This document shows positions 6,797 through 61,749 of a DNA stretch of 64,000 nt, piece by piece. A program made the translations under genes and the position numbers. Every line of letters starts with the position of its first letter. Position 1 is the stretch's first letter. Source of the stretch: Raja brachyura (taxonomy: Eukaryota); NCBI GenBank assembly GCA_963514005.1, contig OY740811.1:27466001-27530000 (forward strand). The letters are read 5' to 3'. Under the pieces are notes generated by a model. It was not told where the DNA came from and ran no database searches. It was given only the letters and a program-made list of their open reading frames with translations.

Positions 6797-7525
<729 letters not shown>

Positions 7526-8565: not shown

Positions 8566-9812
8566 ATTCAAGTCAAGTCAAGAGAGTTTATTGTCATGTG
8601 TCCCAGATAAGACAATGAAATTCTTGCTTACTGCAGCTCAACAGGGTAATGTAAACAAAAATACAGAACAGTTCAGTTCAATATACATATAAATAAGCAG
8701 ATAAAGTGCAATAGGCTGTTACAGTTCAGAATCTGTTTCTTGGCGAGTTTAATAGCCTGATGGCTGTTCCTGAACCTGGATGTAACAGGTTTCAGGCTCC
8801 TGTACCTTCTGCCCGATGGAAGTGGAGAGATGAGTATGTGGCCAGGACGGTATGGGTCCTTGATGATGTTGGCTGCCTATTTGAGGCAGCGACTGCAATA
8901 GATCCCCTCGATGGTGGGGTGGTCGGAGCCGATGATGGACTGGGCAGAGGTTACGACTTTCTGCATCCTCTTCCGCTCCAGGACGATGCAACCAGCCACC
9001 ATGCTTTCTACTGTGCACTTGGAGAAGTTCGAGAGAGTCCTCTTTGACATGCCGACTCTCCTTAGTCATCTCAGGAAGTAGAGGCGCTGATGTGCTTTCT
9101 TTATGATTGCATCAGTGTGCTGGGACCAGGAAAGCCCTTTGGAAATGTGCACACCCAGGAATGTGAAGTTCTTAACCCTTTCCACCATTGTCCCGTTGTG
9201 GATTCCTATCCTACCCCTTCCAAAGTCCACAATAAGTTCCTTGGTTTTGCTCGTGTTGAGAGCCAGGTTATTGTGTGGGCACCATTTGGTCAATCAGTCG
9301 ATCTCACTTCTATACTCTGACTCGTCCCCATCAGTGATTCGTCCCACAACAGTGGTGTCGTCAGCGAACTTGATGATGGAGTTTGCGCTATGTCCGTCTA
9401 CGCAGTCATGAGTATAGAGTGAGTACAGCAGAGGGCTGAGCACGCAGCCTTGATGTGCTCCCATATTGATTGTTGTAGAGGATGACACATTTCCACAAAT
9501 ACGGACAGACTGTGGTCTGTGGATGAGGAAGTCGAGGATCCAAATGCAGAGGGATGCGCAGAGACCCAGATCTGAGAGCTTGGTAACTAGCTTGGAGGGG
9601 ATGATTGTATTAAACGTCGAGCTGTAGTGAATGAATAACAGCCTGACATATGAGTTTTTGTTGTCCAAGTGGTCCAGAGCGGAGTGGAGAGCCAGTGAGA
9701 CTGCATCCATCATTGATCTGTTATGGCAGTAAGCGAACTGCAATGGGTCGAGGTTCTTGTCGAGGTAGGAGTTGATATGCGCCATAATCAACCTCTAAAA
9801 GCACTTCATCAC
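8566..9812 (-). mobile_element. Rex1/Babar non-LTR retrotransposon, 5'-truncated, frameshifted RT
   Basis: ORFs 9294-9791 ([13 protein letters not shown]...[17 protein letters not shown]...[12 protein letters not shown]) and 9066-9293 (KWC..NNLALNTSKTKELIVDF...KAHQRLYFLR); the 3' end has AATAAA and a (CTTGA)n tail near 8570-8592. Confidence 0.9.
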
Positions 9813-9924: not shown

Positions 9925-10520
9925 CCACAATAATCAGCTGTCCATCGCACGGACCAGACTTCCCACCACTGACTCCATCTGCAATTCACACTGCCTCAGA
10001 AAAGCTGCCAAGACTTGTCCCATCCTGGTCATTCCTTCTTCTCCCTGCTCCCGTCTGGTAGAAGGTGCAGAAGCTTAAAACTGCACACCACCTGACTGGG
10101 GAACAGCTTCTTCCCCTCTGTTATCAGGCTTCCGAATGGTCCATTCATAATGTGTAGGAAGGAACTGCCGATGCAGGTTTACACTGTAGAGGAAGGGTCT
10201 CGACCTTCTATCCAGAGATGCTGCCTGTTCCTGATTTACTCCAGCATTTTGCGTCTATCTTTGGTCGATTCATAAGCGCGGGTTCTGTGCGATTCACAAC
10301 ACCATTGCGGACATTGGACTTTATCTGTGGAACTGGTGCGCTACAATGCTGACAACTATATTCTGCACTCTGTTTCATCCTCGTGATTCCATCTGTTGTC
10401 CTTGGCTTTGACTTGATTGCATTTATGTGCAGTATATCTGATTCCTATGGATAGCATGCAACACAACGCTTTTCACTGTACCTCGGTACACGTGACAATG
10501 ATACATGAAACCTAAACCAT
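9925..10520 (+). mobile_element. Rex1/Babar 3' end and 3'UTR, interrupted by a PLE-derived short element (about 10151-10267)
   Basis: HPGHSFFSLLPSGRRCRSL...NSFFPSVIRL-like sequence at 10021-10135; attcataa is repeated on both sides of the insert. Confidence 0.65.
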
Positions 10521-11880: not shown

Positions 11881-11919
11881 TCCCACTCGGCGCTACCCTG
11901 GTACAACCTACCCACCATT

Positions 11920-12050
11920 TCTGAAGAAGGGTCTCGACCCGAAACGTCACCCATTCCTTCTCTCCAGAGATGCTGCCTGTCCCGCTGAGTTACTCCAGCT
12001 TTTGTGTCTAACTTCGGTTTAAATCAGCATCTGTAGTTCCATCTTACACA
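11920..12050 (+). mobile_element. PLE-derived short element with an intact minimal hammerhead core (11921-11948)
   Basis: ctgaagaagggtctcgacccgaaacgtc followed by the family body gatgctgcctgtcccgctgagttactccagc and tail cagcatctgtagttccatcttacaca. Confidence 0.8.
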
Positions 12051-13489
12051 ATGTACCCAGCAACCTGATATGACCAACCCTGCACTGCCATTGAAAGGTT
12101 TTAAATCAAACCGCAGATGCTGGAAATCTGAAATAAAAAGCTCAAAAAAACGCAACAAGTCTTGCAGCATCTGTGGAAAGAGAGACGGTCAACGTTTTGC
12201 GTCTGTGTCTCTTGGTCAGAACATTGCACTGAAACGCTTTAATGCATCTTAACCCTCAGTGCGATGCCCTGATATAGTCGTCCAGCACTCTGCCTCAACT
12301 CGCCCGCATCCAACCCTCCCTCTCCGCAATGGGAAACAAAGGTTTTATCTAACGCATGCCAAGCTGCGTAAGTCAGGGGTATGTTGCAACATTGCAACAC
12401 GCACCATGTGCGCTCGCATAAATAACTTGTATAACTGGGGGCTGCGTTTCTGTGTATATCAGGGAAGTTGTGATGGGGGGGAGCTTTTCAGAACCGAAAA
12501 CACGAGGAACTGCGGATGCTGGCAGCTTCAGCAAAACACAAAGCGGTGGAGGCATCTGTGGGGAAAATAGACCCGTGTGATCCCGTCCGTCCCCATCCAC
12601 AGACGCTGCCCGAGGCGCTGTGCTCCTCAGATACTTGGTATATAACGTTACATAACTCGCTGCGGGGATGTTGGGGCTGCCGGCGTTTATTGCTCCCCCT
12701 TGCTGCCTTGGGACTGGGACCATATCCAGGCCAGACCAGACCAGGGAAGAACATTAGCTGGATGTGTTCAAATCGTGCCATGCCAATGAGAGATTCTGAA
12801 TAGGAGAAATGGAATCTCATCCCATGTCGGAAGTGCAGCGGCAGTGACTTCATGGCCCGGGAAAGTTCAGCAGACATGGCCCAAAATCTAATGGATGGTT
12901 GCAACAACAACAAAAATAATTAATCGGGTTCACCACTATATTTTGGGAATGTAATATCGATTAAGGTCCATTTGTGAGTTCAGAAACTGGTTGATTTAAC
13001 TCTCTCCGAGGCAACCCAGCATAACATGCAGGTCCATGGATAGCAGGGACGCGCCTATGCCTGGTGTGAAGGGAAGCTGCACACTGCCGGTGCGGAGCCA
13101 GCCAGCCGGGGCGGGGATGTAACTGCGGCCGCGGTGCCCTCCTGTGTGAAGTGCAGGCAGCCCTCAGTGCCCGAGCAGGGGACAGGCGGCCGAGGAGCTG
13201 CGGAGGGAAATCGCAGTCAAAGCACCCTCTCTATCCCAGCTTCAAGATGCCCTAAGCCTCCCAACATCTACCCACAATACCTTCTCTCACACACACAAGC
13301 CTAACACACGCACAGCCTGACACACACACACGCAGCCCCCCGCACACACCCATACAGCGACGTACCCCACAGATACATACAAACAAGTGCACATACGTAT
13401 ACACAGCCCGACACACGCCCCACTCACAGATATACTCCACAGATATACACACACACAACAGGCACACACACAGTCCCCGATAATGAATA

Positions 13490-13826: not shown

Positions 13827-15600
13827 TTCCTTTTTTTCCCCGGAGATGCTGCCTGACCTGCTGAGTTCTTCCAACGTTCAAAAGTCAAGAGTGTGCATTG
13901 TGTTATGTCCCAAACACAACTGCATTCTTACTTGTAGCAGCACAACAGAATATGTAAACATAGTATTCTGTAAACAATATAATAAACGATAAAGTTCCGT
14001 AAAAACAAACAATATTGCAAAAAGACTAAACCAATGCCCCCAAGTGTGTGTGTCTATCTCCGGTAAAGACCAGCATGTGGAGTTTCTTACTACAATGTTC
14101 TGCTCTGGCCCGGCTGCCAGCCTAAAGGATCCCGGCACAAAACGTCATCTATCCATTTTCTCGTGAGTTTTCGCGTTACTCCAGCACTTTGTGTCTTTTT
14201 ATTTTGTAAACCGGCATATGCAATTCCTTGTGTCCACACAATGAACCGTAGATGGTGGAATCTGGATGTAGGAAGGAACTGCAGATGGTGGTTTAACCCG
14301 AAGACAAGAGTGCTGGAGGAACTCCGCGGGTCGGGCAGCGTCTGCGGAGGGAATGGACGGACAGGCGACGTTTGGGGGTCGCGATCCTCCCTCAACCCCG
14401 TGTCTCTGCGACGTCCTTCCGCTGATGCCAGGGTGGCCGGAGGAAGTCACATGAAACGATGTAGGAGAAGCAGGGACTGGAATCTGGAGGATTAGGTGCA
14501 AATATACAAGCAAAGGACTTTCAGGGGGCGTAAATTCAATTTGGTAGCGGCGAGAGCCGGTAAACAATGTTTGCAGGTGTGATGCGGGCTGCGAGAGTGG
14601 AAAGATTGCAGCTTTGTGATGCAGTCTACCGTGAGCTAATGTGTAAATTAGTGAGTAGAAGTCAAGCAGTCAGGGCACATTCTCCAATAATAAATCCAAA
14701 CAAGCCCTAGAGTCATTAGAGGAGCGTATTCGCACAAGGAGGTTTGGATTACGGAGCGACGGATCTCGCTAGATTGGGGTGGGAGGGGGGAGGTGCGGGG
14801 GTTGGCAAATGGGACCAAGGTACGGCGCGAATCGGCAGTCTGCTGTGGTTTAATTAAATAAGGTGTTAAGGGATTAGGTGGAACTTGTCATTAAAATCCA
14901 TTCAGGACTAGGCGACGGTGTTTTACTTTCGAGAGGGAGATGCGGCTGGTTGGATTCATGAGGCTGCATTAATGAAATCAGATTGTACCACAGCCCCTTG
15001 TAGCAGCGTCGCGGCTGGGTTTTGTTTTCTGGGAATGACTGGGATCAGCGCTGCCCTTCACTTGGCCTGGCGCATCACGAGAACCCAATCATCCTCGCCC
15101 CCCCCCCCCCCCCCCCCCCCGAGAGAGAGTGGCTCACGGTTCTCACAGTCTGAGACCGGGAGAGTGGTGCCGTGTCTGTAGTGCCGTGGCCGAGGCTCGG
15201 TAGCAGAGGCGACCCCCGCCTTCTCCTGACCGACCAACAGGACTTGATACTGGGTCCGCGTTGTTGGGAGCAGAGGGCAGTGACTCCAGCGACATTGGGC
15301 TCGGCACGGTCTGGGAAATTCGGCTCAAATTATGGGGAGAAGGCAGAAGAATGGGGTTAGGAGGGAGAGATAGATCAGCCATGATGTGATGGGCCGAATG
15401 GCCTAATTCTGCTCCTATCACTTTGAATGTATGAAAACGGGAGGCAACACCTCAACCCTCGTGTTTCCTCTGCATGACCGTCAATCCCATCGATCCCAGT
15501 CCATAATGTTGGGTGAACGATGTAAGAAATGTGTGGGTTACACAAAAAGCTGGAGAAACTCAGCGGGTGCAGCAGCATCTAAGGAGCGAAGGAGATAGGC

Positions 15601-15628
15601 GACGTTTCGGGTCGAGACCCTTCTTCAG
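15601..15628 (-). ncRNA. Minimal type-I hammerhead ribozyme core (pax7 sense strand)
   Basis: CUGAAGA-A-GGGUC(UC)GACCC-GAA-ACGU-C: conserved CUGANGA and GAAA boxes, stem II, palindromic ACGU in place of helix III, and UC cleavage site. Helix I is only about 2 bp. Confidence 0.65.
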
Positions 15629-15636
15629 ACTGTTTT

Positions 15637-15664
15637 CTGAAGAAGGGTCTCGACCCGAAACGTC
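15637..15664 (+). ncRNA. Minimal hammerhead ribozyme core (antisense to pax7)
   Basis: Identical 28-nt core on the plus strand. Confidence 0.6.
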
Positions 15665-15949
15665 GCCTATCTCCTTCGCTCCTTAGATGCTGCTGCACCC
15701 GCTGAGTTTCTCCAGCTTTTTGTGTAACCCTCGATTCTCCAGCATCTGCAGTTCCTTCTTTAACACATAAGAAATGTGTGTGTGGGGTGGGTGGGGGATG
15801 GCGAAAATGAAGGGGAAAATACGATGAATTAAAGACTATAACAAATATCTAAACGGTCATGAGATTGTGGAAGGGTTGGGTCTTAGAGTCATAACGCTAT
15901 GCAGCACGGAATGAGGCCCTTCGGCGCATTTTGTCCATGCCAACCAAGT

Positions 15950-16740
15950 TGGCATACAGGGCTGCAGTGAAGAAGTGTGCAAAAGAGAAAAGAACAGTGT
16001 GCAGAATACAGTGTTACAGCTAGAGAAATTTCTGTTAATATTTATACCTCGGAACCTGAAGCTCATGACCATCTCCACTTTAGCACCACTGGTACAGACT
16101 GGGGCGTGTACCCCACCCCCCCTCCCAGCGTTGGTGATCAGCTTCTTTGTTTTGCTGATGTTGAGGGGGAGGTTGTTGTCTGGACCCTGCTCTTAAGCTC
16201 TCAATCCCCTTCCCGTACCCTGTCTCATCATTGTTTGAGACCTGGTCCACTACAGAGGTGTCATCTGCAAACTTGTAGCTCAAGTTAGAGCAGAAGTTGG
16301 CCACACAGTGGTGTGTAATTAGGGAGTTTGGCAAGGGATTGAGAAAGCAGCCTTGCAGAGGTCCGGTGTTGAGAATAATCGTGGAGGATGTTTTGTCCCC
16401 AATTCCTACTGAGTTCAGACCCAAAGGTACCGACAGTCGACAAATCTCCCTCCTGATTACGGTCTATGGGTCAGAAAGTCGATCCAATTGCAGCGGGGGG
16501 GGGGGGGGGGTTCTGAGTCCTAAGTCCAGTTTGGAGATGAGTTTGGGTAGAATTATGGTGTTGACGGTGGAGCTTTGGTCAATAAATAGTAGTCTAATGA
16601 AGGTGACTTTGTTATCCAGATGTTCCAGAGACAGGGTCAGGGTCAGAGAGCTGGCATCTGCAATGGACCTGTTGCAGCAGACGGCAAATTGAGGCTGTAT
16701 GGGAGGCTGAAGTTAATGTGTGCCATGACCAGACTGGTCG
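15950..16740 (-). mobile_element. Rex1/Babar RT fragment, degraded
   Basis: ORF 16080-16424: ILNTGPLQGCFLNPL...YKFADDTSVV. Confidence 0.8.
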
Positions 16741-21600: not shown

Positions 21601-22607
21601 CCTCTTTCCTTTCACTGAAATTCATTGTCATAATTTGGTGATTGCTGGCAGGACTGTATCTACTGTGCATGAACATTGGCCCAGAAAAGCAGCCATGCAT
21701 GGCATTCATGAGCCACAAACAGTTTCAATGCAGCCAAGTACCCTTGCTGGATTAGTTCAGAAGGGAGGTGACTCTCAGTCACATGGCAATTTTGTTTAGT
21801 TTAGTTTATTGTCACGTATACCGAGGTACAGTGAAAAGCTTTCACTATACACACATGTGGGACTGGAGTCACCTGTGTGTTCAGACCAGATGAGGCCAAC
21901 ACACACCTTCCCCTACAGACAATAATGAAACAGTTTGGTGTTTTGGGTGTCTTAACACATTCACGGTTACTTTTGCTGTTTCTGCGTTTCAAATCAAATT
22001 ATGAAAATGCCTGTGTCGCGGAACCTGTACTGTACAGACAACAGCCATTGAGCCTCTCGTGTCTAGGTCAGACCCTGGTCTCTTGGTCTGTCTGCATTGC
22101 TCTGCAAAGCATTTCCCCTCAAATGCCTATCGAATTCTTTTTTCGGGCACTGATTAATTTTATTTCCATCACTAATTTAGATCATAACTAAAGAAGCTTA
22201 CATATCCTTTGTTACTTTTCCCAAGTTTTCACATCTATGCCCCTGGGCTTTGAACTGCCGGTAAGTGACAATGGGAACAACTTCTCTCTTTTGTCATGAC
22301 CTAACCCAGTCCTGATTTTGTACACTTCTATTAAGTTCCAGGCCTCCCGTTCTAAACACCAAGTTGATGCACAAATTTGAGACACCAATTATAAGCTCCA
22401 ACCAGAACTAGAGCTATTCAACCAAAAATACCAATTGGTACAGCTTGCAAGATAGATACTACAACTGGAGACCAGAGACACCAAATCAAGGCACTGTCCA
22501 GAGGGAGTTACCAAATAATTTGCCTGGAGACAACAGTTGTGTGCATCGCTGAATCTGTCCTTAATCAAGGGCTAGACGTAACCAAATGTGATCTTACATA
22601 TTTAGTG

Positions 22608-22703
22608 TATGTAGATAAAAATATTGGAGAAACTCAGCTGGTGAGGCAGCATCTATGGAGCGAAGGAATAGGTGATGTATCGGGTCGAGACCCTTCTTCA
22701 GCT
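22608..22703 (-). mobile_element. 96-bp solo PLE-derived hammerhead element with a 14-bp TSD
   Basis: ttacatatttagtg at 22594-22607 and 22704-22717; the core is mutated (GAUAC instead of GAAAC). Confidence 0.88.
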
Positions 22704-24101
22704 TTACATATTTAGTGCATCAGAGACATTGAGCGAGGTCCAGATCACACCTAACTATAATGCCTTCATTGGTTGAATAGCTCCTACTGGAGTCTAGACT
22801 CTCAGACACACAGAGACATGATATTCATAAACCTGCTTCAATGTTTTAAAAACACCTAAAGTGGCTCTCATTGTCAGTTAAAATAAATTTTAAGGAGTGG
22901 CTTAAAGGTGAAGAGTTAGATATAGAGTTAAACTTTAGGGAGGAAATTTCAAAATGTAAAGCCTCAGAAACTCCAATAAAGGAGGGATAAAAATCAGCAG
23001 TTATCTTGGGAGTGTTTTGGGCTGGTGGAACCTGCAGAGAATGGACGAGGCAGGGGAGTGAGGGATGAGGATTGAGGCAGCACCAATGCTGCGGGACTTG
23101 TGTTCCCTTGAAATGAATAGAAGCAAAATCAATCCACCTTTTGTTTTAAACGGTGCCAATCTGTTCTCTCCAAAACAGATAGGGTTCTTTCACAAAATAC
23201 ACACCGTTTGAGAAGTGTAATTTGCAAAGAAAGTTTCCAAAACTTTTGTTGCATGCAAATGTATTTTAAAAAGAATTGTTCACGTTCTACCTCAGTTAAT
23301 TTAGGAATATATAAAAGCTGAAGATCAAGGAAAGCCAGCCAGCCATCAATGAAGCTTTCCCCTCCCCCCACCACCGCCTCCTGTCCCCCACAGAAGAGGA
23401 ATGGGAACAGTGAGAGGGCCCACAGCTGGTCAGTCCCTGCTGCTGAGCCCACAGTTCACCTCATTGATACATTAAGTTGGTGTAAAAGTCTGAACAAATT
23501 ACTGATTTGCAACACTCAGAGAAGGACCGTTTACCGCCTTTGTTTGTGTGAAAATCTCACGTGGAAATGAATCTGCTGACAGTCGCTGGCAAACTCACTG
23601 AAAAGCATAAAATGGGAAATTTTCTGCCCGTAAGTGGCATGAGCTAATGTCCATGTTTGAGCCACTGGACCATGCTGCTCGTTAGTGCAACGGGCTCTGT
23701 GATCTCACCGGGTATCTGACTTCTTAATTAGTGCAGAATTGTGACACAAAGGAGTTGTGATTTACTCTCCCTCGAAGGCTCAGTGGGTACATGCACTGTC
23801 CTCCTCTCAATCGAGCGAATGTAGGTCCCAGCACAACCATGTTCTATGCCTATCACCACAAAAAGGCCGATGGGGGTGCAGTGAATCAGTTTCATCGTTT
23901 GCTGGGCTAATCAGGCTTGGTTCCCATTCCAGATTATTACCCAGAGAATGCCTGCTGCCAGATCATCTTGTGGACAACAAGCAGTCTTGGCTGAGACAGC
24001 AAAATCAGTTCAATTACCTTTTGCCTGTTGCCCGTAAAAATTGGGCACTGGGGAGAGATAGGAGAGGACATCTAAAACAATTCAGGAAACAACCTGTACC
24101 C

Positions 24102-28190: not shown

Positions 28191-28730
28191 ACAAACGTTT
28201 AGAAAAATAGAAAATAGGAGAAGGCTATTCAAGCTACTTCAATGATTTGACTCAATCATGACTGATCATCCATTTCACTCCTCCATTCTTGCCTTCCCCC
28301 CCCCCCATATGTTTGATCTCTTTGCATGAAGAATTATATCAACTTTCTTTCTGAATATGTTTAATACATTTTGGGCTGAAAAGTTGAGGTGATGCCAAGG
28401 TCTGATCAGCCATGATGATTTTGAATGGCAGGACAGGATCGATTGGCCAGTTCCTTCTTCAATTTTTCATGTTCCATCTTCACCATAGCACACACAGAAA
28501 CCTTGGAATTTATTCAGACTAAAAAAAAAGACACAAAGTGCAGATGTAACTTAGTGGGTCAGGCTGCATCTCTGGAGAACATGGATAGGCAACGTTTTGT
28601 GACCCTTCTTCAGAATGATTGTGTATTTGGAGATTTGGAAGGAGGAGGCGGGGCAAAGCCTGGCAAGTGATAGGTAGATACAGGTAAAGAGGGTTTGATT
28701 GGCAGATGGTTGGATAAAGAACAGAGATTA

Positions 28731-29790
28731 AAACATAGAAGAATAGGTGCAGGAGTAGGCCAGGACCGCCATTCAATATGATCAAGGCTGATCATCTAAA
28801 ATCAGTATCCCATTCCTGCTTTTTCCCCATATCCCTTGATTCCTTTAGGCTTAAAAGCTAAATCTAACTCCCTCTTGAAAACATCCAGTGACTTGGCCTC
28901 CACTGCCTTCTGTGGCAGAGAATTCCACAGATTCATAACTCTCTGGGTGAAAATGTTTTTCCTCATCTCAGTCCTAAATGGCCTACCCCTTATTCTTAAA
29001 CTGTGCACCCTGTCTCTGGACTCTCCCAACATCAGGAAAATTTTTCTGCATCTAGTCTGTCCAATCCTTTAAGAATTTTATGTTCTTAAAGCCCTCGGGA
29101 AAAAGATACCGCAGCATAAGGAGCAGAACATCAAGGTTCTGCAACAGCTTCTTCCCACGAGCCATCAGACTCCTGAATGCCATGTAATAGGCTGCCACTA
29201 GTGTCTATTTATCCTTTTCACCCATGCCTATCCTTCGGTTAATTTATTGTGTTGCACAGGGAGCCAAATGCAACGTAATTTCGTTTGGAACTGCATGTAT
29301 CAATGTATTTCTAAATGACAATAAAGTTTGTTTGACTTTGACTTTGACTTGTTTCTATAAGATGATCTCTCAACTTTCTAAATTCCAGTGAATCCAAGCC
29401 CAGTCGACCCATTCTTTCATAATATGTCAGTCCCGCCTTCCCGGGAATTAACCTGGTGAACCTACGCTGCACTCGCTCAATAGCAATAATGTCCTTCCTC
29501 AAATTAGGAGACTAAAATTGCACATAATACTCCAGGTGCGGTCTCACCAGGGCTCTGTTCAACTGCAGTAGGACCTCCTAGCTCCTAAGCTAAAAACCTC
29601 ACGCAATGAAGGTCAACATGCCATTAGCTTTCTTTACTTCCTGCTGTACCTGCATGTTTACCTTCAGTGACTGATAGACAAGCACACCCAGGTTTTGTTG
29701 CACCTCGTTTTTTCCTAATCTGACACCATTCAGATAATAATCTGTCTTCCTGCTCTTGCCACCAAAGTGGATAACTCACATTTATCCACA
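28731..29790 (-). mobile_element. CR1 LINE 3' 800 bp inserted in the PLE
   Basis: ORFs 29311-29502 (RKDIIAIERVQRRFTRLIPG) and 28802-29032 (HSLRIRGRPFRTEMRKNIFTQRVMNLWNSLP). Confidence 0.9.
29087..29350 (+). mobile_element. Rex1/Babar 3' end nested inside the CR1
   Basis: GKRYRSIRSRTSRFCNSFFPRAIRLLN, then AATAAA and a (GACTTT)n tail. Confidence 0.85.
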
Positions 29791-31259
29791 ATAACCACAA
29801 TAATGTGAAGCCAGAGGAAGGGATGCAGATGGGGAGGGGTTGGGGGGAGGGAGAGGGGAAAAGGCGGCTGGATAGTGGGAGAAATGGATGTGCTTCCAGG
29901 TGGGACATATGGAAGAGGAGGACTGGGGGTAGAAGGGAAAAGGGGAGGAATTCTTGGTTAGTAGTTACCTAAAATTGGAGATTCAGTGCACATACCGCTG
30001 GGTTGTAAACTATTCAAGGTGCTGTTCCTCCAGTCTCCGTGTGGCCTCACACCGGCAATGGAGGATGCCCAAGACAGAAAGGTCAGTATGGGAATGGGAA
30101 GGAGAGTTAAAATGGTTAGCAAGCATTCACGCTGATGTATTGGAATAGATAATGGTGAAGCCTGTCTATGGTACAGGGGCAGCCTGGAGTTGAGGAACAT
30201 AGGTAATTGCTTTGTATGGAGTTGATATCCCTTCAAACAGTGTGGTCCCAGATGTGTGAAGGATCCTGCAAGATATCAGTTAACCACCGAAGCAGACACC
30301 CATGCGATCTGATACACATTATAGGCTGGACCCAAACACACCGTGGATAAGGAAAAGAGAATGACTCCCTCATCAATCACAGGGATTTTGGGATTTCACA
30401 TTCAATAAGGAGAAATAAATCAAGTTCTCCATAAAACAACATCCTGACCAAAAACATTTATCGGTTGTGGGGGGTTAATGGATGGAATAATTCCAGGTAA
30501 TGTATCGCAAAAAGCCAGAAACTACGCATGGACCTGACTATTCACGACGCCACCGTTTACTGTAGATAGCTTTTCTTGTTCCTGTTTCTAATTTTTCACC
30601 CAAACTGCCAGGCTGTGGTCGCAGAGTACCAAAGGCTTGTGAGGGTGGTGAGGTGGGGGTGGGAGACATGTGCTCTCCCTCCCTTTCATTGCCTTGTTGC
30701 ACCATCTTCTCACCAATCATCCCCACTCTCAGCCCACGCCCCATCCTCCCACTCCACACAATCAGGTGTCAGGGCATCATAAACAAGGCTTTGAAGTGCT
30801 GCCTGTCTCCAGGCAACAGGAGGTGACACCCAAAGCACTGGCTCCTTGTCGGCAAACAGCAAGGCACAGACACTGCAAAGCCTTTCAAAGCATCTCACGT
30901 AAAATGGAAGCGTTTTGGAGCCTTATGATCCCTTGTAAAACCAGGGCAAGCCTGTTACCAACTCTCAGAATTAACAGGTTGCAAGAGACATTTCAAAAGT
31001 CACCTGAACTGCTTGTCAAGAGTTTAAAGAATTAAAGATAGATGCTCAGTGTCTCTGTCTGTGTGGCAGCATTTATACATCAGTTCTCTCTCTGTCCATC
31101 CCTGGGATTCTTGCTTTCTGCCTCCTCTCGCTACTCCCACAGACTTTCCTCTCTGTCTTGTCTTTTCCTTTGATCTTTTTCACTCTATTGCTCAACACAA
31201 GTCATTCTCGGACTTGTTGTATCCAAACTTGAGGAAAGAGAAAGGAAAATAAAATGATT

Positions 31260-42559: not shown

Positions 42560-43548
42560 TTGCCTTATCTTTCACTTTTCATCTCTAGGCCTTTGTCCTA
42601 CCATCTGCCATCGAATCTCCCCCCCCACCTGTATCCACCTGTCACTGTGTAGGTAGGAAGCGCAGATGCTGGTTTGCTTCAAAGACATACACAAAATGCT
42701 CGAGCTACTCAGCGAGTCAAGCAACATCTCTGGATAGAAGGAAGAGATGATGTTTCAGATCGGGATTTGTTCTTTTCATCCCTTTCATTCATTTATTTGT
42801 ATTTTTTTTACCACTAATTTCCCTCTCCCCAGTCTGAAGAAGGGCCTCGAACTGAAAAGTCACCTATTGCTTTTCTCCAGAGATGCTGCCTGACCCGCTG
42901 AGTTACTGCAGCATCTTTTCCACCAATCTCTTCCATTCCCCCCCCCCCCCCCATACCAAGCCGAAAAGTCACCTATCCATGTCCTCCACAGATGCTGCCT
43001 GACCCGCTGAGTTACTCCAGCACTGTCTTTCTCTTTTGAAAACCAGCATCTGCAGTTCCTTGTATCTATATCTCTCTGATTTATCCGCTCCTGTTTTATA
43101 GCCTACCTGAGACTGATTTATAATCAACTCTCCAAACTTGGCATAGCTAAGCACTGTGCTCTGTGAGGATAGATAAGAGACAGAACGAAAGATAAGCACT
43201 TTTCTGAAGCTGATGTGGCCTTTGAACTGCTCGCTGCTCGCCTCAAGGACTTATTGGCAGTTTACCTGAAGCTGATGCAACTCGACCAACCCCCCTGAAG
43301 GACACTATGACTGAGAAGTGACCTGTGGACGTATATTCTCCGTGTCTGTGCTAACCCGTCCCCACTGTCAGGGTGACATGTTCATCTGGAGACACAAAGT
43401 GTTGGAGTGTCTAACCCGCTGATTCACTCCAGCACTTTGTATCTTTTTTAATCTGAAGATGGTCCCGTCCTGAAACGCCGCCTGTCCATCCCTTCCCCAG
43501 ATGCTGCCTGACCCGCTGAGTTACTCCAGCACTTTGTGTCTTTTTTCA
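42560..43548. mobile_element. Cluster of PLE terminal-repeat-derived elements in tandem and inverted arrangement
   Basis: Family body gatgctgcctgacccgctgagttact recurs near 42881, 42991 and 43500; degenerate cores near 42834, 42960 and 43453; reverse copy at about 42646-42765. Confidence 0.75.
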
Positions 43549-45837: not shown

Positions 45838-47836
45838 CGGAGAAAGCGAATCTGCAAATTGTCCTTGGCCGTAGTTTCTTTTTATTAAACGAGCATCTAA
45901 CAAAGGTTTCGAATCGGTGATAACTATAATAGTGGATGGTTCCATTTTTGTGCGGTAGACATGGGTCTAGAAACATACAGAGAGAGAGAGAGAGAGAGAA
46001 CGACACGGAAAGTGAGGAATGGAGCGGGCACAGTTGTGCTGAAGAAGCCGAGTTACTCCAGCACTCTGTGTCTTGTTTGTAAACCAGCATCTGCAATTCC
46101 TTGTGTCTACAATCTATGCTCGAGTGACTCAATGGATCGGGCAGCATCTCTGTTAAATGATAGGTTTGACCAAGTTCTTTGTATTTTCTGCTTCTTTTTT
46201 TTCAGATTCCGAGAACTTTCGGATGAATCGGTGGGGCTTCTGCCCCGCTCACTAATCTCCTGCATCCAGGGCTCAAAGATCTTTCGCATTTGGCCTGGGT
46301 CTAACTAACGGGAGCGGCTTCACTTCACCAGATATCCATATCGGTAACCAGTTATGTATAAGCATTAGACCTAGTCTGCGGGATTTGCCGAGTGAATGAT
46401 GCATGTGTCTCAGCTTTTACTCCGGCCAGCCCTCGCCGCTTTCTCCTTTGTGCAATCACCAGCTTTTGTTAGATAATCAGTCGCCTGATGGGATGAGGAA
46501 TAGATAAAGATTCTTGGCATCTGGCGGCTAAAATGAAAGGGGGATTAGGTACCGGCCGCTGCACACTCCATGGCACATGGGCTTGCTATTCCCCTCATTC
46601 AGGATACCATTGATTATATCCAACCCTCCGTGTTTCGTTACATCTCTCCGAGATGTTTGTATTCGCCGGACAATTCGCCGGACAAAACAAAAAGCTAATA
46701 GCTCTGGTGCATGTGAACTACTGAGACCCTTAAAGGGGCAGTCCCATCGCTCCCCGCAGTGGCTATCATTTAGTTGAACAGTGAAATAGGAACGGTGCTT
46801 GTTTAGTTTAGAGATACAGCAGGGAAACTGACCATTTGGCCCACCGTGTCCACGCCATTTCGGCCCACCATCGATCACTCGTTCACACTAGTTCTAAGTT
46901 ACCCCACTTTCTCACCCACTGTCGCTTTCCTCCCACATTAGGGGCACCGGCCCCTGAAATATCTGCATCTAGTATAGGCCATTTGCAGCACACAATTGAA
47001 ATAGTTCCTGCAGTGTGTGATGTGGGGATAAGGTGTAGCCTGGAATGGTGCCCATAGGACAACAACTGTCCATTTTACCCCGGGCTCTGCAAAAGCTGTT
47101 AACGTTAATAATCAGGAAAAAGTTATAGGCACGTGGAGACTTTTGAGTTAATAAAGGAGATTGGTTAAAGGCAAATAATGTTTGACTGAGGAAGGTTCTG
47201 AAGAGGTAATGGACAAGGTTGGTTCAGGACATGTGGTTATTATAATTTTGTTTGAGAGAATCCACACAAAGGCTGGTTTGGGAAATGACACCTGTGACCT
47301 CAGGATCAGTGGCTGCATGAATATGAAATTGGCAAAGCGACAAAAGTTAAGAATCATGGTGATCTTCAGAAATGAAGATGATAGATGTGCTATTCCCCAG
47401 GGATCTATGCCAGGACAAATGCTTTTGTTTCAACCTAAAGTAATGACTGGGAGGAGGTAACATTTCAGAATTTGCATGACAGTAATACACTGCAAAAGAC
47501 CACGGCTAAACTGGCACAACAAAGAGAGGTGATATACTTTAACAGGAAGAACAAACACAGAACAGTGGATAATGCTACTACCCCACAGCCCCAGTGACAC
47601 AGATTAATTGTTGACATTGGGCACTACTGTAAATTCCCTCCCCAATATGCAAGTAAATGGTAAAATAAATTCTAAAAAGTTGGAAATTAATTGGCAGCAA
47701 TAACATGCAATGCCATGAGAAAATAAGACAATGGGGAATTGGACGAGAGGTTTTTCTGTTAGGAAACAACATGAATTTAATGATCCAAATGGTCTTTTGT
47801 AATAAATAAGTGTGTGACATTGACTTAAGCAATATT

Positions 47837-48035
47837 ACCCCTCTCCACCCCCTCCTCTCCCTGCTCCCTCACTCCTCACCTCTCCCCTATCGCACTTACC
47901 CACTAAACACAATGTTTAAATAAGCGGGGGAGGGGAGGAGGAGAAATTTTATTTAAACATTGTGTTTAGTGGGTAAGTGCGATAGGGGAGAGGTGAGGAG
48001 TGAGGGAGCAGGGAGAGGAGGGGGTGGAGAGGGGT
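47837..48035. repeat. Perfect 87-bp inverted repeat with a 25-nt spacer
   Basis: 47837-47923 is the exact reverse complement of 47949-48035. Confidence 0.92.
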
Positions 48036-48299
48036 TATGGATGGAGGGAGGGAGTGACTGAGGGTAGGGAGTGACTGAGGATAGGGTAAAGGTGAAGGAG
48101 GGAATGGAGGAGGAGAGGGGAAAGAAGAGGGATGGTGAAGAGGAGGGGGAGGGAGTGTATGAGCCACGCCTGCGCGGTTGGGCCCTATGGGTGAGTGATG
48201 GATATTGTGTTGGGGGAACAGGTTGCGTTGGGGGAACGTGTGAGTGGTGGAATATTGCATTGGGTGAACGGGGCCCAACAAGTACCACTTGGTTTAGTT

Positions 48300-51609: not shown

Positions 51610-52605
51610 TCCAACGCATAGAACACATTCGCCAACATTTCTGCCAAATTCAACGTGATCCCACCAAATGTCCCTGCCCCACCCCTTTCTGTGTTTCTGT
51701 AGAGACCACTCTCTTTATAACTCCTTAATTCGCTCATCCCTTCCCACCTAACATACACCCTTCTCCATGTAGTTTCCTCAACACGTGTCCCTACACCTCC
51801 TCTCCCACCTCCATCCAGAGACCCCCACCATCACTTCCAGATGAGACGTAGGTCCACGTGCACCTCCCCCAACCTTGTCTATTGCATTCAGTGCTCCCAA
51901 TGTGTCCTTTACATTGGCGAGACCAACCGTAGACTGGGCGACCGATTCGCTGAAAGCTTGCACGTTGTCTGTCAAGGCCTACTCGCTCCACCGGTTGCTA
52001 ACCGTGTTCTCAATCCCACGCCGGCCTCCTCCTCTGCCAGCGAGAGGCCACACACAAACTGGAGGAACCGCACCCTCATATTCCGTTTACGTAGCTTACA
52101 ACCCAATGGTATGAACATTGAATTCTCCAATTCAAGTAATACCCATTGACACCTCCTCTCTTTCCCCTCTTCCTCACTTCCCCCCACCCCCATACCAATG
52201 CGCAAACATCTCTCCCACCACCCCAGTAACTCATCGCCAAGTCCCATATTTCATTTCATCTCTTTCCCCTCCCCTGTACCGTTTCACTCCTATCCCTCCC
52301 TCTGGCTTTACATTTCACCCTTCCCTCATCTCTCCATATCTGACACCTTTTTATCTTCTTTTGCTCTGTAGCCTTTGTCACTTATTCCACCCATCAGCCA
52401 ATTAAACCCCACCCCCCTCACTTGAGTCCAACTATCACTTGTCAAACTCTGTCCTACTCCCTCTCTCTTTTGTAGCTTTCTCCGCCCTTTTCCATCAGTC
52501 TGAAGAGACGTAAAGACCCGAAACGGCGCCTGTCCGTCCATTCCGTTCACCGATGCTGCTTGACCCGCTGAGTTCCTCCAGCACTTTGTGTTTTGCTTAC
52601 ACAAC
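51610..52605 (+). mobile_element. Penelope-like retroelement (Neptune-type) 3' part: linker, GIY-YIG endonuclease pseudogene and terminal repeat with a decayed hammerhead
   Basis: ORF 51841-52149: TCTSPNLVYCIQCSQCVLYIGETNRRLGDRFAE...LIFRLRSLQPNGMNIEFSN (VY..YIG.T.R...RF). Upstream NTCPYTSS linker. Downstream cagtctgaagagacgtaaagacccgaaacggc at 52496-52527 plus the family body. Confidence 0.9.
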
Positions 52606-53970: not shown

Positions 53971-55224
53971 TCCCTACAAGATCGTTGCTGGGGTTGACAG
54001 GGTGGGTGCAGGGATGATGCTCTTGGCCGGAATCTCCAGAACAGGAAATCAAAACCGAGGTGCGAATGTTTCTTAATGAATCTTTGGAATTCTCCACCCA
54101 AGGCCCCGTGGATCTCAGTTGCCGAGTATAGTCGAGGCAGAGAATGCTCATTGTTTTGTAATACGAAGGGACTCTGGGATGTGGGGTTAGTGCAAGAAAG
54201 TGGTGCCGAGCTAATGGTTCAAGCGCGATCATATTGAATGGCTGAACAGGCACAGGCGGCTTCCAGTTCTGAACCATCCAGGAATGCAGTGAGATTCCTG
54301 AATCACTCCAGCACACAGCTATTATGTGCGAATGGCAAACAAAACACAGATCCCACCAACCTACCCATCACGTTCTCCTGAAGAAGGGTTTCGGCCCGAA
54401 TCGTCGCCTATTTCCTTCGCTCCATAGATGCTGCTGCACCCGTTGAGTTTCTCCAACATTTTTGTCTCCCTTCGATTTTCCAGCATCTGGATCCTGACTC
54501 AGTCACCTCAGCACCCACAGAATCACAGTGGGAAGTGTTACCATTACCCCCACATATTCCCCACACAAGACCAATATATAGTTCACTTTCTTATGTGAGT
54601 TGTTTGACCTACATTTTTTTCCTCACCCCCCCCCCCCCCAGTATTTTGTATTTTTATATGAATTCCTTGTATATCCTTCCTATATCTTGTGTAAATATAC
54701 CATGGAATCTGTCCACATCGTTCTTCATTCTCTACATATTCACCAGCATCGGCCGTGCCTTGTTTCTCTCCGTGTTTTGCACTCTATGTCTGTTGCAGAG
54801 AACAAGTCCGAGCGCTCCGCTGCCGCTGGCGAACCACCAATTGATTGAAACTTCTCGCCTGCAGCCGCTGACAGACCGCGGCGAGTCACATGCTCTTTAT
54901 TAATTAACCAGCAAGTTGATAAACAAAGGCCGCTCCGGACGCGGGACATTCATGCAGATATCAGCAGCGTCAGTTTCGGAAAACTTCCCTTTATTTTCGT
55001 TCGTGAAATCTCTCCCATTGTAGATTTGAGGCTGTTCCCCGATCTCAGTTCACGTACTCAGCTTCTTATAAGAGTCTCGACTTGATTGTATTTATGTATA
55101 GTATTGACATTAGATTGGATCGCAGGCAAAACAAAGCTTTTCATTGTACTTCGGTACACGTGACAATAATAGACCCAAACCCAAATCAGATTCACTCCGA
55201 TAAAGTTGGATTCCTGCACACTGG

Positions 55225-55405: not shown

Positions 55406-55747
55406 ACACTGCTGGACTAAATTCGTCTGATACTTCTTTGGAGTTTGAAATATAGGAAGGGTGATCTTATCTAAATAACTTAGGGGTCATGGCTGGATGA
55501 ATGTTGAGTTCATTCTGCAAATGGGAAGGTCTTGAGCAAGGAGAGAAACATCGTTATGAGATGTACCTCATTACACGTGACAATGAACTAAGCTAAACTA
55601 AACTAAACTAAGATGGTGATCTCTGAAAACGGAGGCGTACAGGAACCTCTTGCATTTGAATCTCTGGGATTTGGAGCCCCAGAGGTTTGTGGAGATTATT
55701 GGAGAAGGTTGATAGATAATCGTTTTGAAGCACCAAAGAACTGACCA

Positions 55748-55977
55748 TAGACACTAAATGCTGGAGTAACTCAGCGGGTGAGGCAGCATCTCTGGATAGA
55801 AGGAATGGGCGACGTTTTCGGGTCGAGACCCTTCTTCACAGACGTTCTTCAGAGAAGGTCCCGACCCAAAACATCACCCATTCCTTCCCTCCAGAGATGC
55901 TGCCTCACCCGCAGAGTTACTCCAGCATTTTGTGTCTACCTTCGATATAAACCAGCATCTGTAGTTCTTTCTTACAC
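55748..55977 (+). mobile_element. Inverted PLE terminal-repeat pair plus tail (diverged)
   Basis: Arms at about 55748-55838 and 55851-55938, tail to 55977; same architecture as 15535-15767. Confidence 0.82.
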
Positions 55978-56665
55978 TAAGACTGAGGGCGATGTGAAAC
56001 TGGCATAGAACTGACATAGAAAATAAGATGAGGCCAAGGGCAGATCAGCACGATTATATTCAATGGAGGGGATTAAGGGGGAGGTCTGAGAGGCCTATTC
56101 CTGCTCCTATTTTTTTGTATTCTTGTGCGGGATGTTATGGTTGTGGCAGCACATAACCTTGAGTGACTGAGTGTGGTCACAAAGATTTTATTTGCCTGAA
56201 TTGTTGCAATAAGAAACACAAACCTGATCTTATACAGGTTTCCAAGATCAACTCTATCCTGAATTCTCCAAATTCACTGTTAAGCTAAGTGGCCATCTCC
56301 CAGATCAACATACCCAGTCATCAGACCACAGTTACATATTGCTTGCACGCCCAGAACTAGACTCACAACGCAGGCAGTCTGTTCCATGCCCTCTCACAGA
56401 TAGAGATGTCCAGGTGGACAGAGGAGAAGATTCAAGGAACGTGCTCAAAGCCTCCTGGAAAAGAAGAATCCCAAGACACTACCACCAAAGGAGGAGTGTT
56501 GAAGGAGTTATGAGTGCAGCACTGTTGAGGGTGTCTTGAGTCTCTAGTGGGGTGGTCTTTGTCAATTGAGTTAATGGGGAGGGCAGCAATACTGAAGGGT
56601 TGGCAAGTGCAGCAGCATTGAAGTAGGAGCAGGTTTAGCCATGCAAAAGCAACATAATACATTGG

Positions 56666-56761
56666 GGGTTACACAAAAAGCTGGAGAAACTCAGCGGGTG
56701 CAGCAGCATCTAAGGAGCGAAGGAGATAGGCGACGTTTCGGGTCGAGACCCTTCTTCAGAC
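56666..56761 (-). mobile_element. 96-bp solo PLE-derived hammerhead element with a 10-bp TSD; intact core at 56732-56759
   Basis: Identical to 15535-15630; tacattgggg at 56658-56667 and 56765-56774. Confidence 0.9.
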
Positions 56762-57689
56762 CAGTACATTGGGGAATTGATGCAGCTGTGAATGTCAGCA
56801 GTACTGAGCAACTGCAACATTTTGGATGGAGCAGCAAGGGCAGCAATACTGAGTGAGTAGTGGCCGCAGTAGAATCAATGAAGATGTAATATTGCAAAGA
56901 ATTGGAAGCAGGCGAGTAGCAGTATTGAGGGGCCAGACTGTCCTGAGATCTGGGTCTCAGTGATGATTAAGCAATGAGTAGAAAGCTTTGAAGAAGCAAC
57001 AGTGTTGAGAGGGCGAGGAGAGCAGCAGGTGTGAGAAAGTACCCAGAACCACAGAGCTGATGGATGAACGAGTGTAACAGTACATTTTGGAAGAAACTGC
57101 AGATGCTGGAAAATCGAAGGTAGACAAAAATGCTGGAGAAACTTAGCGGGTGAGGCAGCATCTATGGAACGAAGGAAATAGGCAACGCTTCGGGCCGAAA
57201 CCCTTCTTCAGTTGTGAATGCTGCAAGAGTGAGCAGTGTAAAATGAGTGCTTGCACTGGGACTGAGAATGTGACATAACAGTGAACCCTCAATACTGCTG
57301 CACTCACAACATGCTCACACGGTATCACTTGCTGCTCCCATAATAATCCTGCAGTCAATGCTATCCCAGTACCATTGCACTTCATTCTCCACACCACTCA
57401 TTCTTCCCAAGTGCAGCGCTCCCTCCTCACTGCTACTGCAGTGCAGTGGGAGTTGTGGGTGCAGCAATATGGGAGGAGCGTGTTGCACGTAGTCTGGGAA
57501 TGAGGCAGCAATAGAAGGTCTGCACTGCCACATTGCTGCCTTACAAGGTGACGGTCCCAGCATTATATACAATAATTCACTCAAACTCTTCATTCTGGGC
57601 TTCTTTTAAAAAAATTCTAAGCTGAGCTGAATATGGCCATAATGTTCCAAACACCTACATGTCAGGGATGATGGCTGAGCAATATAATT

Positions 57690-59902: not shown

Positions 59903-61749
59903 TTTCGGTGGGCTGTTTGGATTATATTATTCCGATACTATGGAGCAGTGATGAGCGTGCAGTGAGGTGGCGGGGCTGTAAGTGGAGCAATGCGGAGATG
60001 CCAATGAGATGAGAACATGACCATGGAGATTACAACAGGTAGTGCAGTAGTATTGAGGGAAGAGTGAATGCAAGAAATCTGAACGAGCAGTCAGTGCAGC
60101 GGGGAGAGGTGAGGTGAAAGCGGCGGGGAGAGGTCAAAGGATACAGGAGTGCAGCAATATAAAGAGAACATTTAGGCAGAAGTGCATTTAGCTAAAATAA
60201 AGAGCATGAGAGAGAGTAGCGTCGTTTGTCATCGCAGAAGGATGTTCTCCGGACACACACGCCAGTCATATTAAGCTTACCAACGGCGATTCTATCCTAT
60301 ACTTGTAATATTTTATGTCGCGCATCATTTAAGGACCCTCCGTCTTATCCCACCCTTCACGACCCTTCTCTGATTCAAGGCAGACACCAGTCGGATGTGC
60401 AACTGGCGCGGTCCCTGCACTTCACGCAGCCGGCCCGGATCCACAACTGCTGGGCTATCTCCCAGACACGAGGAACTGCAGATGCTGGAATGTTGGGCAA
60501 AACACAAAGTGCGGGAGGAACTCTGCTTGTCATGTAGCATCTGTAGAGTCTGAAGAAGGGCCCAGTCAGAAAGGTGGTCTATCCATTCCCTCCACAGATG
60601 CTGCCTGTTGACGGCGAAGTTCCTCCAGTGCTTTGTGTTTTGAATGGACTCCCTTTTGTTATATATAATGTGCTCAATCGCTCGTCAAACGCTTGGTTGG
60701 ACTGGAGGCGCTGTTTTCCAAGGCCCAGGCCAAGGTGGGAAGCTCAAATCCTAACCCCGCGGGACAGCGAGGACCAATCTGCTGAACCCATCCTCACGAA
60801 CTGATAGGATCCTGTCCCGTGGACAATGACATTCGAGTTTCCAAACATTGTAACCGAGGCACGTACCCGCTGCAATTGCGGATTAGTCTCTGTGCAGGAT
60901 CGTTCGCCTTAGCAACATCGAAAGACGAAACAATCATGAAAGGATAAATTACAGAGAGAGGCCACTCGGCTCATCGTGGATGTCCCAGCTGGGAAAGACC
61001 TGTCCAATTGCCACCCGCGCCGACCCTGTCCCCGCAACCAAACGACGTTCTCCATTTCGCAAAGTTACCCGTTTATTTCGCAGACGTCTAGAATGTGTTC
61101 TGTGGGGCTTCAGCTGCTTGAACTGTGACCCAGGAGATGGGTCGGACACGGCTCTCTCTCTCCTAGTAATCGGTGGAAACCGAGTGCACTGACGGCTCCA
61201 GGAGTGGAATGATACACATCTATTTAGCCCAAAGCTGTTTACAGGTTGCGCCACGGTTTAGCCCGGTGGCGGTTTTCTTTGAATGGATTTACTCGGTATT
61301 AAGCGCAAGGCCCTGGCGGTGGATACACTCCCACGAAGCGTCAATGATCACAGCAGTGACAATGTTCACAGATTTGAGGTTACGGAGCCACATTTCTCGT
61401 TTTTGTTTTCACGTCTAAGGGGGATCTGGATTGGTAAATACCAAAGGCGTTATCGGAGACAACTCTGATAGAGCCTTGAATGCCTGCAATGCACTGAACT
61501 GCGTGGGCGCACTGAGGGTCGTCAAGAGGGAACGAGGCCTCCTTAGCCTCTGCCCAACGACCCACAACCATCCATCCCCCATCAACGTCCACAGTGACAA
61601 GATCACACCTATGCACTAATGTACACGTCTTCTCATCAACATATACAGGCACAACGACGGACATTCACAAATCCACAGCTGATAGCCTCTTCTCTTGTTA
61701 GACTGTCCCTAAGAGTTGGGCAAGACTTGTTCCCACTATAGAACTGTGG

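Follow-up and report, generated by a model that had tools for sequence, protein, structure and literature searches.

A recent palindromic insertion in the pax7 gene of a skate as the probable stump of a Neptune-type Penelope-like element

A stretch of 64,000 nt from the skate Raja brachyura, referred to here as the window, contains an insertion whose two halves mirror each other without a single mismatch, with a hammerhead motif in each half and a tail on one half only. How does such a structure arise, how long has it been in its place, and does the hairpin that it would form in the RNA of its host gene, pax7, serve any purpose? We consider it probable that the insert of 245 nt is the truncated stump of a recently active Penelope-like element (PLE) of the Neptune type, and that the palindrome was not inherited as such but built at the insertion itself, by priming at two sites.

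The two arms of the focal palindrome (15535-15629 and 15636-15730) are 95 nt each, 100% complementary and separated by 6 nt. The zero-mismatch arms, the tail on one arm and the target-site duplication (TSD) of 12-13 bp, all of which had been listed in an initial annotation, are confirmed from the sequence, and so is the architecture of a Penelope-like insertion, i.e. an adjacent inverted copy and a 30-40 bp tail on one end; here the tail has 37 nt (15731-15767) and is carried by the right arm only. The element comprises 233 nt without the TSD, and the insert of 245 nt is made up of these and one 12-bp TSD. An exact repeat of at least 12 nt in the geometry of this TSD occurs at 0.6% of 2000 random window positions. 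The 6-nt spacer (ctgttt) described earlier holds as the distance between the 95-nt arms, but not as a linker: contigs of the family align through 15632 and then continue into natural upstream sequence, and older copies carry CAG there, so the CTG belongs to the element, being its upstream CAG in reverse complement, the left arm extends to 98 nt, and the real linker is TTT. The unit landed recently, at an AT-rich site that was cut with a stagger of 12-13 nt. Beside the insertion site, at 15330-15423, lies the 3' end of another very abundant repeat, which is LINE-like and has a short tandem tail in other copies. The features discussed here are collected in Table 1.

Table 1. Positions of the focal insertion, related copies, candidate parent remnants and the host exon in the window
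Feature	Position	Strand	Remarks
Left TSD	15523..15534	+	12 bp; 13 counting G15535, common to TSD and arm
Inverted tail-less arm	15535..15632	-	unit nt 1-95 + 3 nt natural upstream sequence (CAG)
Minimal type-I hammerhead core, left arm	15601..15628	-	sense to pax7 pre-mRNA; helix I 2 contiguous bp
TTT linker between the two 5' ends	15633..15635	no strand	presumably an untemplated or microhomology join
Direct arm	15636..15730	+	unit nt 1-95
Minimal type-I hammerhead core, right arm	15637..15664	+	helix I only 1 bp (G-U)
ATG-led frame, 27 codons	15687..15767	+	open to tail end; possible ORF start of parent element, unproven
Tail	15731..15767	+	37 nt, between proximal (nt 93-95) and distal (nt 132) 3' ends
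Right TSD	15768..15779	+	12 bp, repeats 15523-15534
Solo tail-less arm with own TSD	56658..56774	-	arm 56666-56760, 95/95 identical to focal left arm
Solo tail-less copy	22594..22717	-	14-bp TSD, stops at proximal site
Older head-to-head insertion	10143..10275	no strand	nearly non-overlapping arms (inverted tail piece + direct tail-less arm); 8-bp TSD
5'-truncated PLE	51783..52600	+	decayed C-terminal GIY-YIG nuclease 51783-52140, ~350 nt pyrimidine-rich, family copy 52499-52600
Second nuclease-end remnant + family copy	28521..30153	-	remnant 29979-30153, copy 28521-28630, another repeat between
pax7 homeodomain exon	7241..7443	-	AG/GT-flanked; 100% identical to elasmobranch Pax-7

The age of the insertion was approached through four of 21 listed public runs (X17, X15, X18 and X5), which were compared as contigs with positions 14800-16600. 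In run X17, from a related species (organism G), 11 differences are found in 304 nt of flank, and contig 11 (649 nt) matches 15406-15535 and 15802-15975, two parts that are 21 letters apart in the contig and 266 in the window. The 245 letters that it lacks correspond to the element (233) together with one 12-bp TSD, and the contig therefore represents the empty site; the check proposed earlier, for an empty allele with a single TSD copy in a sister species, came out positive here. In run X15 (organism F), four contigs agree with the flank throughout 1,443 nt. Contig 3 follows the window as far as 15535 and then departs from the filled allele for 17 letters, and contig 8 carries 34 letters ahead of 15802; if these contigs were assembled from 31-letter words, as is assumed here, such overhangs are of the length expected for an empty allele that breaks at the first base of the TSD. 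An empty allele is thus most likely present in the species of the window itself, perhaps next to the filled one, as read from the geometry of the contigs and not from their letters. X15 may be the sample of the window itself, and no listed contig spans a filled junction. Among the pieces listed for runs X18 and X5 no contig bridges the site, which is uninformative either way. The identity of the arms alone bounds their divergence at 3.1% and could also be kept by conversion, and the empty site is the stronger evidence of age. The insertion is very recent and probably polymorphic, in line with the earlier suggestion.

Could the palindrome be an artefact of assembly or of fold-back in long reads? 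Perfect palindromes are a known hazard of assembly (PMC8557442), no contig shown spans the filled junction, and X15 most likely presents the empty site. However, the flank resumes correctly after the insert, with a duplication of 12-13 bp, the arms differ by the tail and by 3 arm-unique nt, nine older pairs share the same design, and the break in the X15 contig coincides with the first base of the TSD, the point at which a filled allele would merge; an artefact is thus extremely improbable.

A family HMM built from 17 copies in the window yields 49 matches, which cover 6.6% of the window, and none on the reversed window. Among the 42 strong matches the 3' end lies at model positions 106-123 in 19 cases, at 138-150 in 20, earlier in three and at 124-137 in none; local alignments that end early in a variable stretch may exaggerate this gap, and the HMM itself comes from 17 of the same copies. 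The family unit has two alternative 3' ends, 37-39 nt apart, one with and one without the tail. Adjacent members form 16 pairs, 10 of them head-to-head, three tail-to-tail and three in the same direction (p = 0.0016), and the tail occurs on one arm in 7/10 head-to-head pairs, on neither arm in 3/10 and on both in 0/10, where two of the counted arms are weak matches. All five older loci that had been listed as sharing the focal design (near 2947, 53795, 55748, 59708 and 60467) are indeed head-to-head, but those at 2947 and 53795 are tail-less, and the one at 60467 has its tail on the other arm. Absent from the initial annotation are five more pairs, the identical solo arm at 56666-56760 and the nuclease remnants. 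The form at 10143-10275 is to be read with the caveat that its tail piece is a weak HMM match (E 0.023) and that 7.9% of random sites also show an 8-bp repeat. Tail-to-tail neighbours (11919-12219, 14117-14395 and 46047-46152) are rarer than head-to-head ones. At 55737-56021 lies an older palindrome with arms 92% alike and a likely TSD of 14-15 bp, in which the tail is separated from the right TSD by about 30 additional nt. Another near-perfect palindrome (47834-48038; 90-nt arms, 99%, 25-nt centre, 87 nt perfect) is unrelated to the hammerhead family and is possibly a MITE or other young insertion.

The family is a very abundant repeat common to four organisms: the depth on the arm is about 10^5 times that of the unique flank in all four runs (in X15 the summed depth is 3-4 million, against about 9 on the unique flank, which is not a copy number), and there are at least about 1,500 different joints among those listed for the compared runs. 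The palindromes within it differ in their centres and arm lengths, and their TSDs measure 8, 10, 12-13 or 14 bp. The differing centres indicate that each palindrome arose anew when it was inserted, with no palindromic master behind it; a MITE or another palindromic non-autonomous master was also rejected on account of the varying arm and TSD lengths and of the existence of solo arms.

Solo copies in the window show the arm on its own. The twin of the focal left arm at 56666-56760 is enclosed in a 10-bp TSD (56658-56667 and 56765-56774, with two G common to TSD and arm) and stops in the same C-run (nt 93-95) as the focal tail-less arm about 41 kb away. Segmental duplication was rejected as the origin of this twin because its flanks are unrelated to those at 15.5 kb. 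It follows from this copy and from the one at 22594-22717 that use of the proximal end does not depend on a partner arm, and, as an identical arm exists alone with a TSD, the perfect identity of the focal arms needs no fold-back.

These features may be accounted for by the following series of events. Each nicked target strand would prime reverse transcription on element RNA: priming at the distal site (nt 132) would yield the tailed arm, whereas priming at the proximal site, in the C-run at nt 93-95 and with 1-2 nt of G:C microhomology, would yield the tail-less one. Both cDNAs would stop near the 5' edge of the hammerhead, for which run-off at the 5' end of the RNA would be the likeliest reason, and would be joined head to head via the TTT/AAA linker; complete overlap of the arms would need two RNAs, a tandem RNA or strand displacement. 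A PLE protein has been reported to cut and extend both target strands, with two internal starts of reverse transcription that bracket the tail, and it is a predicted dimer for which hammerhead cleavage was unneeded in vitro (PMC11167929).

It was proposed, on the other hand, that inverted ends arise by fold-back, where a single cDNA, or an antisense RNA template, folds and is copied back into a perfect inverted arm; the account in PMC3846280 proposes an antisense RNA template and favours self-priming for head-to-head junctions. Arms that are 100% identical, head-to-head and separated by a 6-nt loop are what such a process would leave, and two of the seven tailed pairs (12503-12638 and 55742-55974) are compatible with it, although they do not discriminate. 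In 5/7 tailed pairs, however, each arm has sequence absent from its partner, which favours two separate primings, as fold-back should leave one arm fully contained in the other; the tail-less arm has 18-90 unique model positions in four older pairs. In the focal palindrome itself the arm-unique sequence is no longer than 3 nt (chance about 1 in 64), i.e. the natural upstream sequence of the tail-less arm that is missing from the tailed one. With an identical arm also occurring alone within its own TSD, fold-back is an unlikely origin of the palindrome, and two-site priming remains the preferred one.

A separate issue is the nature of the template. The youngest copies could be templated by a short non-autonomous PLE derivative of about 135 nt, SINE- or retrozyme-like, which would have its own transcript and be mobilised in trans; it is compatible with two-site priming. 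In line with this, 6/8 of the youngest arms start within 3 nt of the hammerhead 5' edge, the family is very abundant (with 6.6% of the window, and an arm depth far above that of the unique flank), and non-autonomous pLTR derivatives have been described (bioRxiv 10.64898/2026.07.22.740005; PMC8557442). Yet the copies are not a tandem array, they begin about 30 nt before the cleavage site and not at it, and older copies extend into the nuclease ORF. A 27-codon frame also speaks against the derivative: it begins at an ATG 22 nt past the hammerhead cleavage site and is open in the three youngest tailed sequences (15636, 54378 and 57211), though broken at 11920 and 55853. As a possible ORF start the frame is unproven: in comparison with the N-termini of 110 full-length relatives it has no match above reversed controls. 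On balance we regard a short template as the less probable of the possibilities, but a serious one. The idea, put forward in the initial annotation, of a minimal PLE without coding sequence survives only in this form, as its palindromic part finds no support in view of the differing centres, of the arm that occurs alone and of the older copies that run into the end of the nuclease ORF.

Candidate causes of the common 5' end of the arms are an initiator-like TCAGT start, a 3' splice site at the CAG, which may be the end of a pyrimidine-rich intron, and a short template. Downstream of the initiator-like site there is an MTE-like match of 9/12 (chance 0.5% at a fixed place), which was noticed post hoc and is not counted as evidence. 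An alignment of 24 copies revealed no common spliced leader; in D. virilis an intron end maps to helix I (PMC4209133). Run-off has to be reconciled with the fact that two of the eight youngest arms share a 14-nt upstream word and that at least four older copies retain 50-350 nt upstream. The 14-nt word (11904-11917 and 54357-54370) has only these two exact matches in the window, with a 7-nt word common further upstream, and it may be a subfamily leader or a shared target. We tentatively entertain a more specific picture, namely of a Neptune-type PLE that is transposing now and most of whose insertions are run-off products of an RNA 5' leader starting at the hammerhead 5' edge, with a protein dimer priming two RNAs at two fixed sites from two nicks.

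Which element did the stump come from? Two older copies in the window are preceded by remnants of a nuclease. The one at 51783-52140, with a CxxC between its two motifs, has 581 phmmer matches (best 2.7e-16), falls in a GIY-YIG cluster of the Atlas (0.93) and is also identified by tblastn; searches of Pfam, of word-seeded homologues and of PDB gave no match for it. Ten of the phmmer relatives were looked up, and the two best-scoring ones are from skate and stingray; among 18 matches that were scanned, 14 have a GIY-YIG match, most of them below the Pfam cut-off. The remnant aligns to the C-terminus of ORFs of 760-900 aa with a reverse transcriptase (RT) and a GIY-YIG domain. A CX2-5CxxC linker, of which the remnant keeps only the last half, is present in 90/110 full-length relatives, and in the account of PMC8557442 this linker is assigned to Neptune, Nematis and Naiad but not to Penelope/Poseidon. 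The family is the terminal repeat of a PLE, probably of the Neptune type, a clade assignment that comes from a decayed nuclease and not from an RT tree, and the link to the nuclease is known from older copies, 76% identical to the focal unit, and not from the youngest subfamily. No telomerase-like RT of the PLE type was found in the 64-kb window, while it is present in relatives of the remnant; an intact parent element was likewise not found in the window, and pattern scans of viral contigs, metagenome contigs and prokaryote genomes gave 0 loci.

Both remnants (~52135-52145, +, and ~29955-29965, -) finish in a splice-donor-like GTAA at the ORF stop. A pyrimidine-rich region comes next, and in most copies where it is preserved it ends in CAG at the hammerhead. 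The 3' region of the PLE could be spanned by an intron from the GTAA donor to the CAG. In the upstream part of one copy (42810-42832) the sequence reads as branch point, pyrimidine tract and CAG, and this copy seems to start at about the branch point. The older PLE remnant is split by a LINE-like insertion at ~28740-29790, and a non-PLE reverse transcriptase fragment lies at 9294-9794 on the minus strand (Pfam RVT_1, 2e-13).

The focal insertion had been described as two back-to-back hammerheads. A descriptor of the minimal type-I hammerhead finds four sites in the window, both focal arms included, and none in each of 20 shuffles, which bears out the core in both arms, but a full helix I is missing: it has two contiguous bp in the left arm and one in the right, and there is no helix III in the monomer. 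In computed folding, the probability of helix II is 0 inside the focal hairpin and 0.005 in the unpaired twin, where the core pairs elsewhere. An active hammerhead is improbable, since the predicted three-helix structure is incomplete (helix I of 1-2 bp, no helix III in the monomer, helix II at 0-0.005). A scan with Rfam gave 0 matches at the gathering score and 17 weak matches, none of them to a hammerhead and mostly to miRNA models that fit the hairpin shape; a miRNA precursor was rejected, as the best match (MIR1858) reaches 117.8 bits against a cut-off of 137, with the hairpin shape behind the score. Across 24 copies and 18 pairs, 86% of cells are paired, a value reached by 121/500 shuffles, and covariation leaves the helices unsupported. 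The minimum-energy fold of the tailed unit (15636-15767) brings the tail end into pairing with the hammerhead core and encloses the proximal start site in an 8-bp stem; the z-score of this fold is only -1.7, and it is not accompanied by covariation. Single minimal hammerheads showed no cleavage in the work reported in PMC4209133, and the cleavage of an anole hammerhead required protein (PMC11167929).

The host gene had been named as pax7, and in agreement with this the homeodomain exon at 7241-7443 is 100% identical to that of elasmobranch Pax-7. Since no other pax7 exon was found in the window, we infer that the insertion is intronic, in the intron upstream of this exon. The pre-mRNA strand folds into a hairpin of 95 bp (-220 kcal/mol, z = -22, mean pair probability 0.998). 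It had been argued that the antisense arm is transcribed first, so that the sense ribozyme is trapped and silenced; the order of the arms holds, but it would be the same on either strand of any head-to-head palindrome and is not specific to pax7, and the hairpin does fold as proposed, but silencing does not follow, as the probability of helix II is as low as 0.005 even in the unpaired twin. Judging from these folding computations, silencing is probably moot, with nothing to silence in the hairpin.

The hairpin might nevertheless be functional in pax7 RNA, by trapping a harmful ribozyme or by feeding ADAR or small-RNA pathways, with palindromes being tolerated for that reason. The energy of the fold and the zero probability of helix II within it agree with such a role, and a perfect duplex of 95 bp is a plausible ADAR substrate. 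However, an identical core without a partner lies in sense orientation in the same intron (56759), with its helix II at 0.005, and the sense strand of the intron shows no deficit of solo copies that reach the hammerhead (10/17 are sense to pax7, p = 0.63). Helix I is truncated, the insertion is missing from a relative, and an unrelated 90-bp palindrome is present in the same intron; the lack of cleavage of single minimal hammerheads (PMC4209133) and the protein requirement of the anole one (PMC11167929) also argue against it. We therefore consider a function of the hairpin very unlikely. The insert is probably a neutral intronic passenger of pax7 that would form a long dsRNA hairpin.

The focal locus has a known architecture, that of an extremely 5'-truncated, inverted plus direct insertion of the terminal repeat of a PLE of probable Neptune type, and its mirror-image shape is an ordinary by-product of insertion and not a designed RNA switch; the new points are the allele without the insert, the solo twin of identical sequence and the link to the nuclease. 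The locus itself, one of very many stumps in a large intron, is of little weight. The probably polymorphic insertion, the empty site and the identical twin 41 kb away, on the other hand, indicate recent PLE activity in a cartilaginous fish, and the focal insertion gives exact positions of nicks and priming. The step in which the head-to-head repeats of PLEs originate is called still undefined in PMC8557442, and the test for arm-unique sequence, applied genome-wide, can choose between two published ideas on the inverted ends. If the run-off leader reading is true, the huge family is an in-vivo record that would decide between two-nick priming and self-priming. Stumps of PLEs are also usable as presence/absence markers.

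In LINE-1 twin priming, both nicks prime on the RNA and an inverted 5' part results. The insertion at 10143-10275 has the same non-overlapping form, but the family differs in its fixed second priming site and in arms that can overlap fully. The papers searched include none that deals with twin priming in PLEs or describes this family from a skate or ray; the family may well have an entry elsewhere, such as in Repbase, Dfam or a supplement.

Non-LTR retrozymes (bioRxiv 10.64898/2026.07.22.740005) resemble the family in being non-coding and pLTR-related, in having a type-I hammerhead and in their presence in a chondrichthyan genome. They are, however, head-to-tail tandems with a hammerhead per unit, whereas the focal insertion is head-to-head, flanked by a TSD and does not start at the cleavage site; a retrozyme was rejected because the copies are head-to-head or solo, with only 3/16 adjacent pairs in the same direction and none of these with two intact cores. 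The hammerheads themselves are like the minimal type-I motifs of metazoan PLEs (PMC4209133), with which they share the CUGANGA + GAAA core, the extra base before helix II, G10.1-C11.1, the palindromic 15.2-16.2 and the absence of loop 3; the focal helix II has 4 bp, and helix I has 1-2 bp against 4-5 bp in metazoan PLEs (2 bp in D. virilis). Dual hammerhead motifs on opposite strands, 100-700 bp apart, have been described in Schistosoma in the same paper.

PAc, a Poseidon element of Anolis carolinensis (PMC11167929), is similar to the family in the starts of reverse transcription that bracket the tail, in the cutting and extension of both strands, in its AT-rich target and in AC-rich starts, and its hammerhead was unneeded for insertion in vitro. 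It belongs to a different clade, and its ORF starts in stem II of the hammerhead, whereas the first ATG of the skate family lies 22 nt past the cleavage site. Endonuclease-positive (EN+) PLEs of the Neptune type (PMC8557442, PMC3846280) have the adjacent inverted copy, the one-sided tail, the TSD, the hammerhead in the terminal repeat and the upstream GIY-YIG domain in common with the skate family; in a PLE of A. vaga (PMC3846280), the pLTR holds 12 and the tail 22 ORF codons, compared with about 14 and 27 after the ATG in the skate. What sets the focal insertion apart from these EN+ PLEs is that only the terminal 95-132 nt remain of both its copies, which makes the whole insert a single hairpin.
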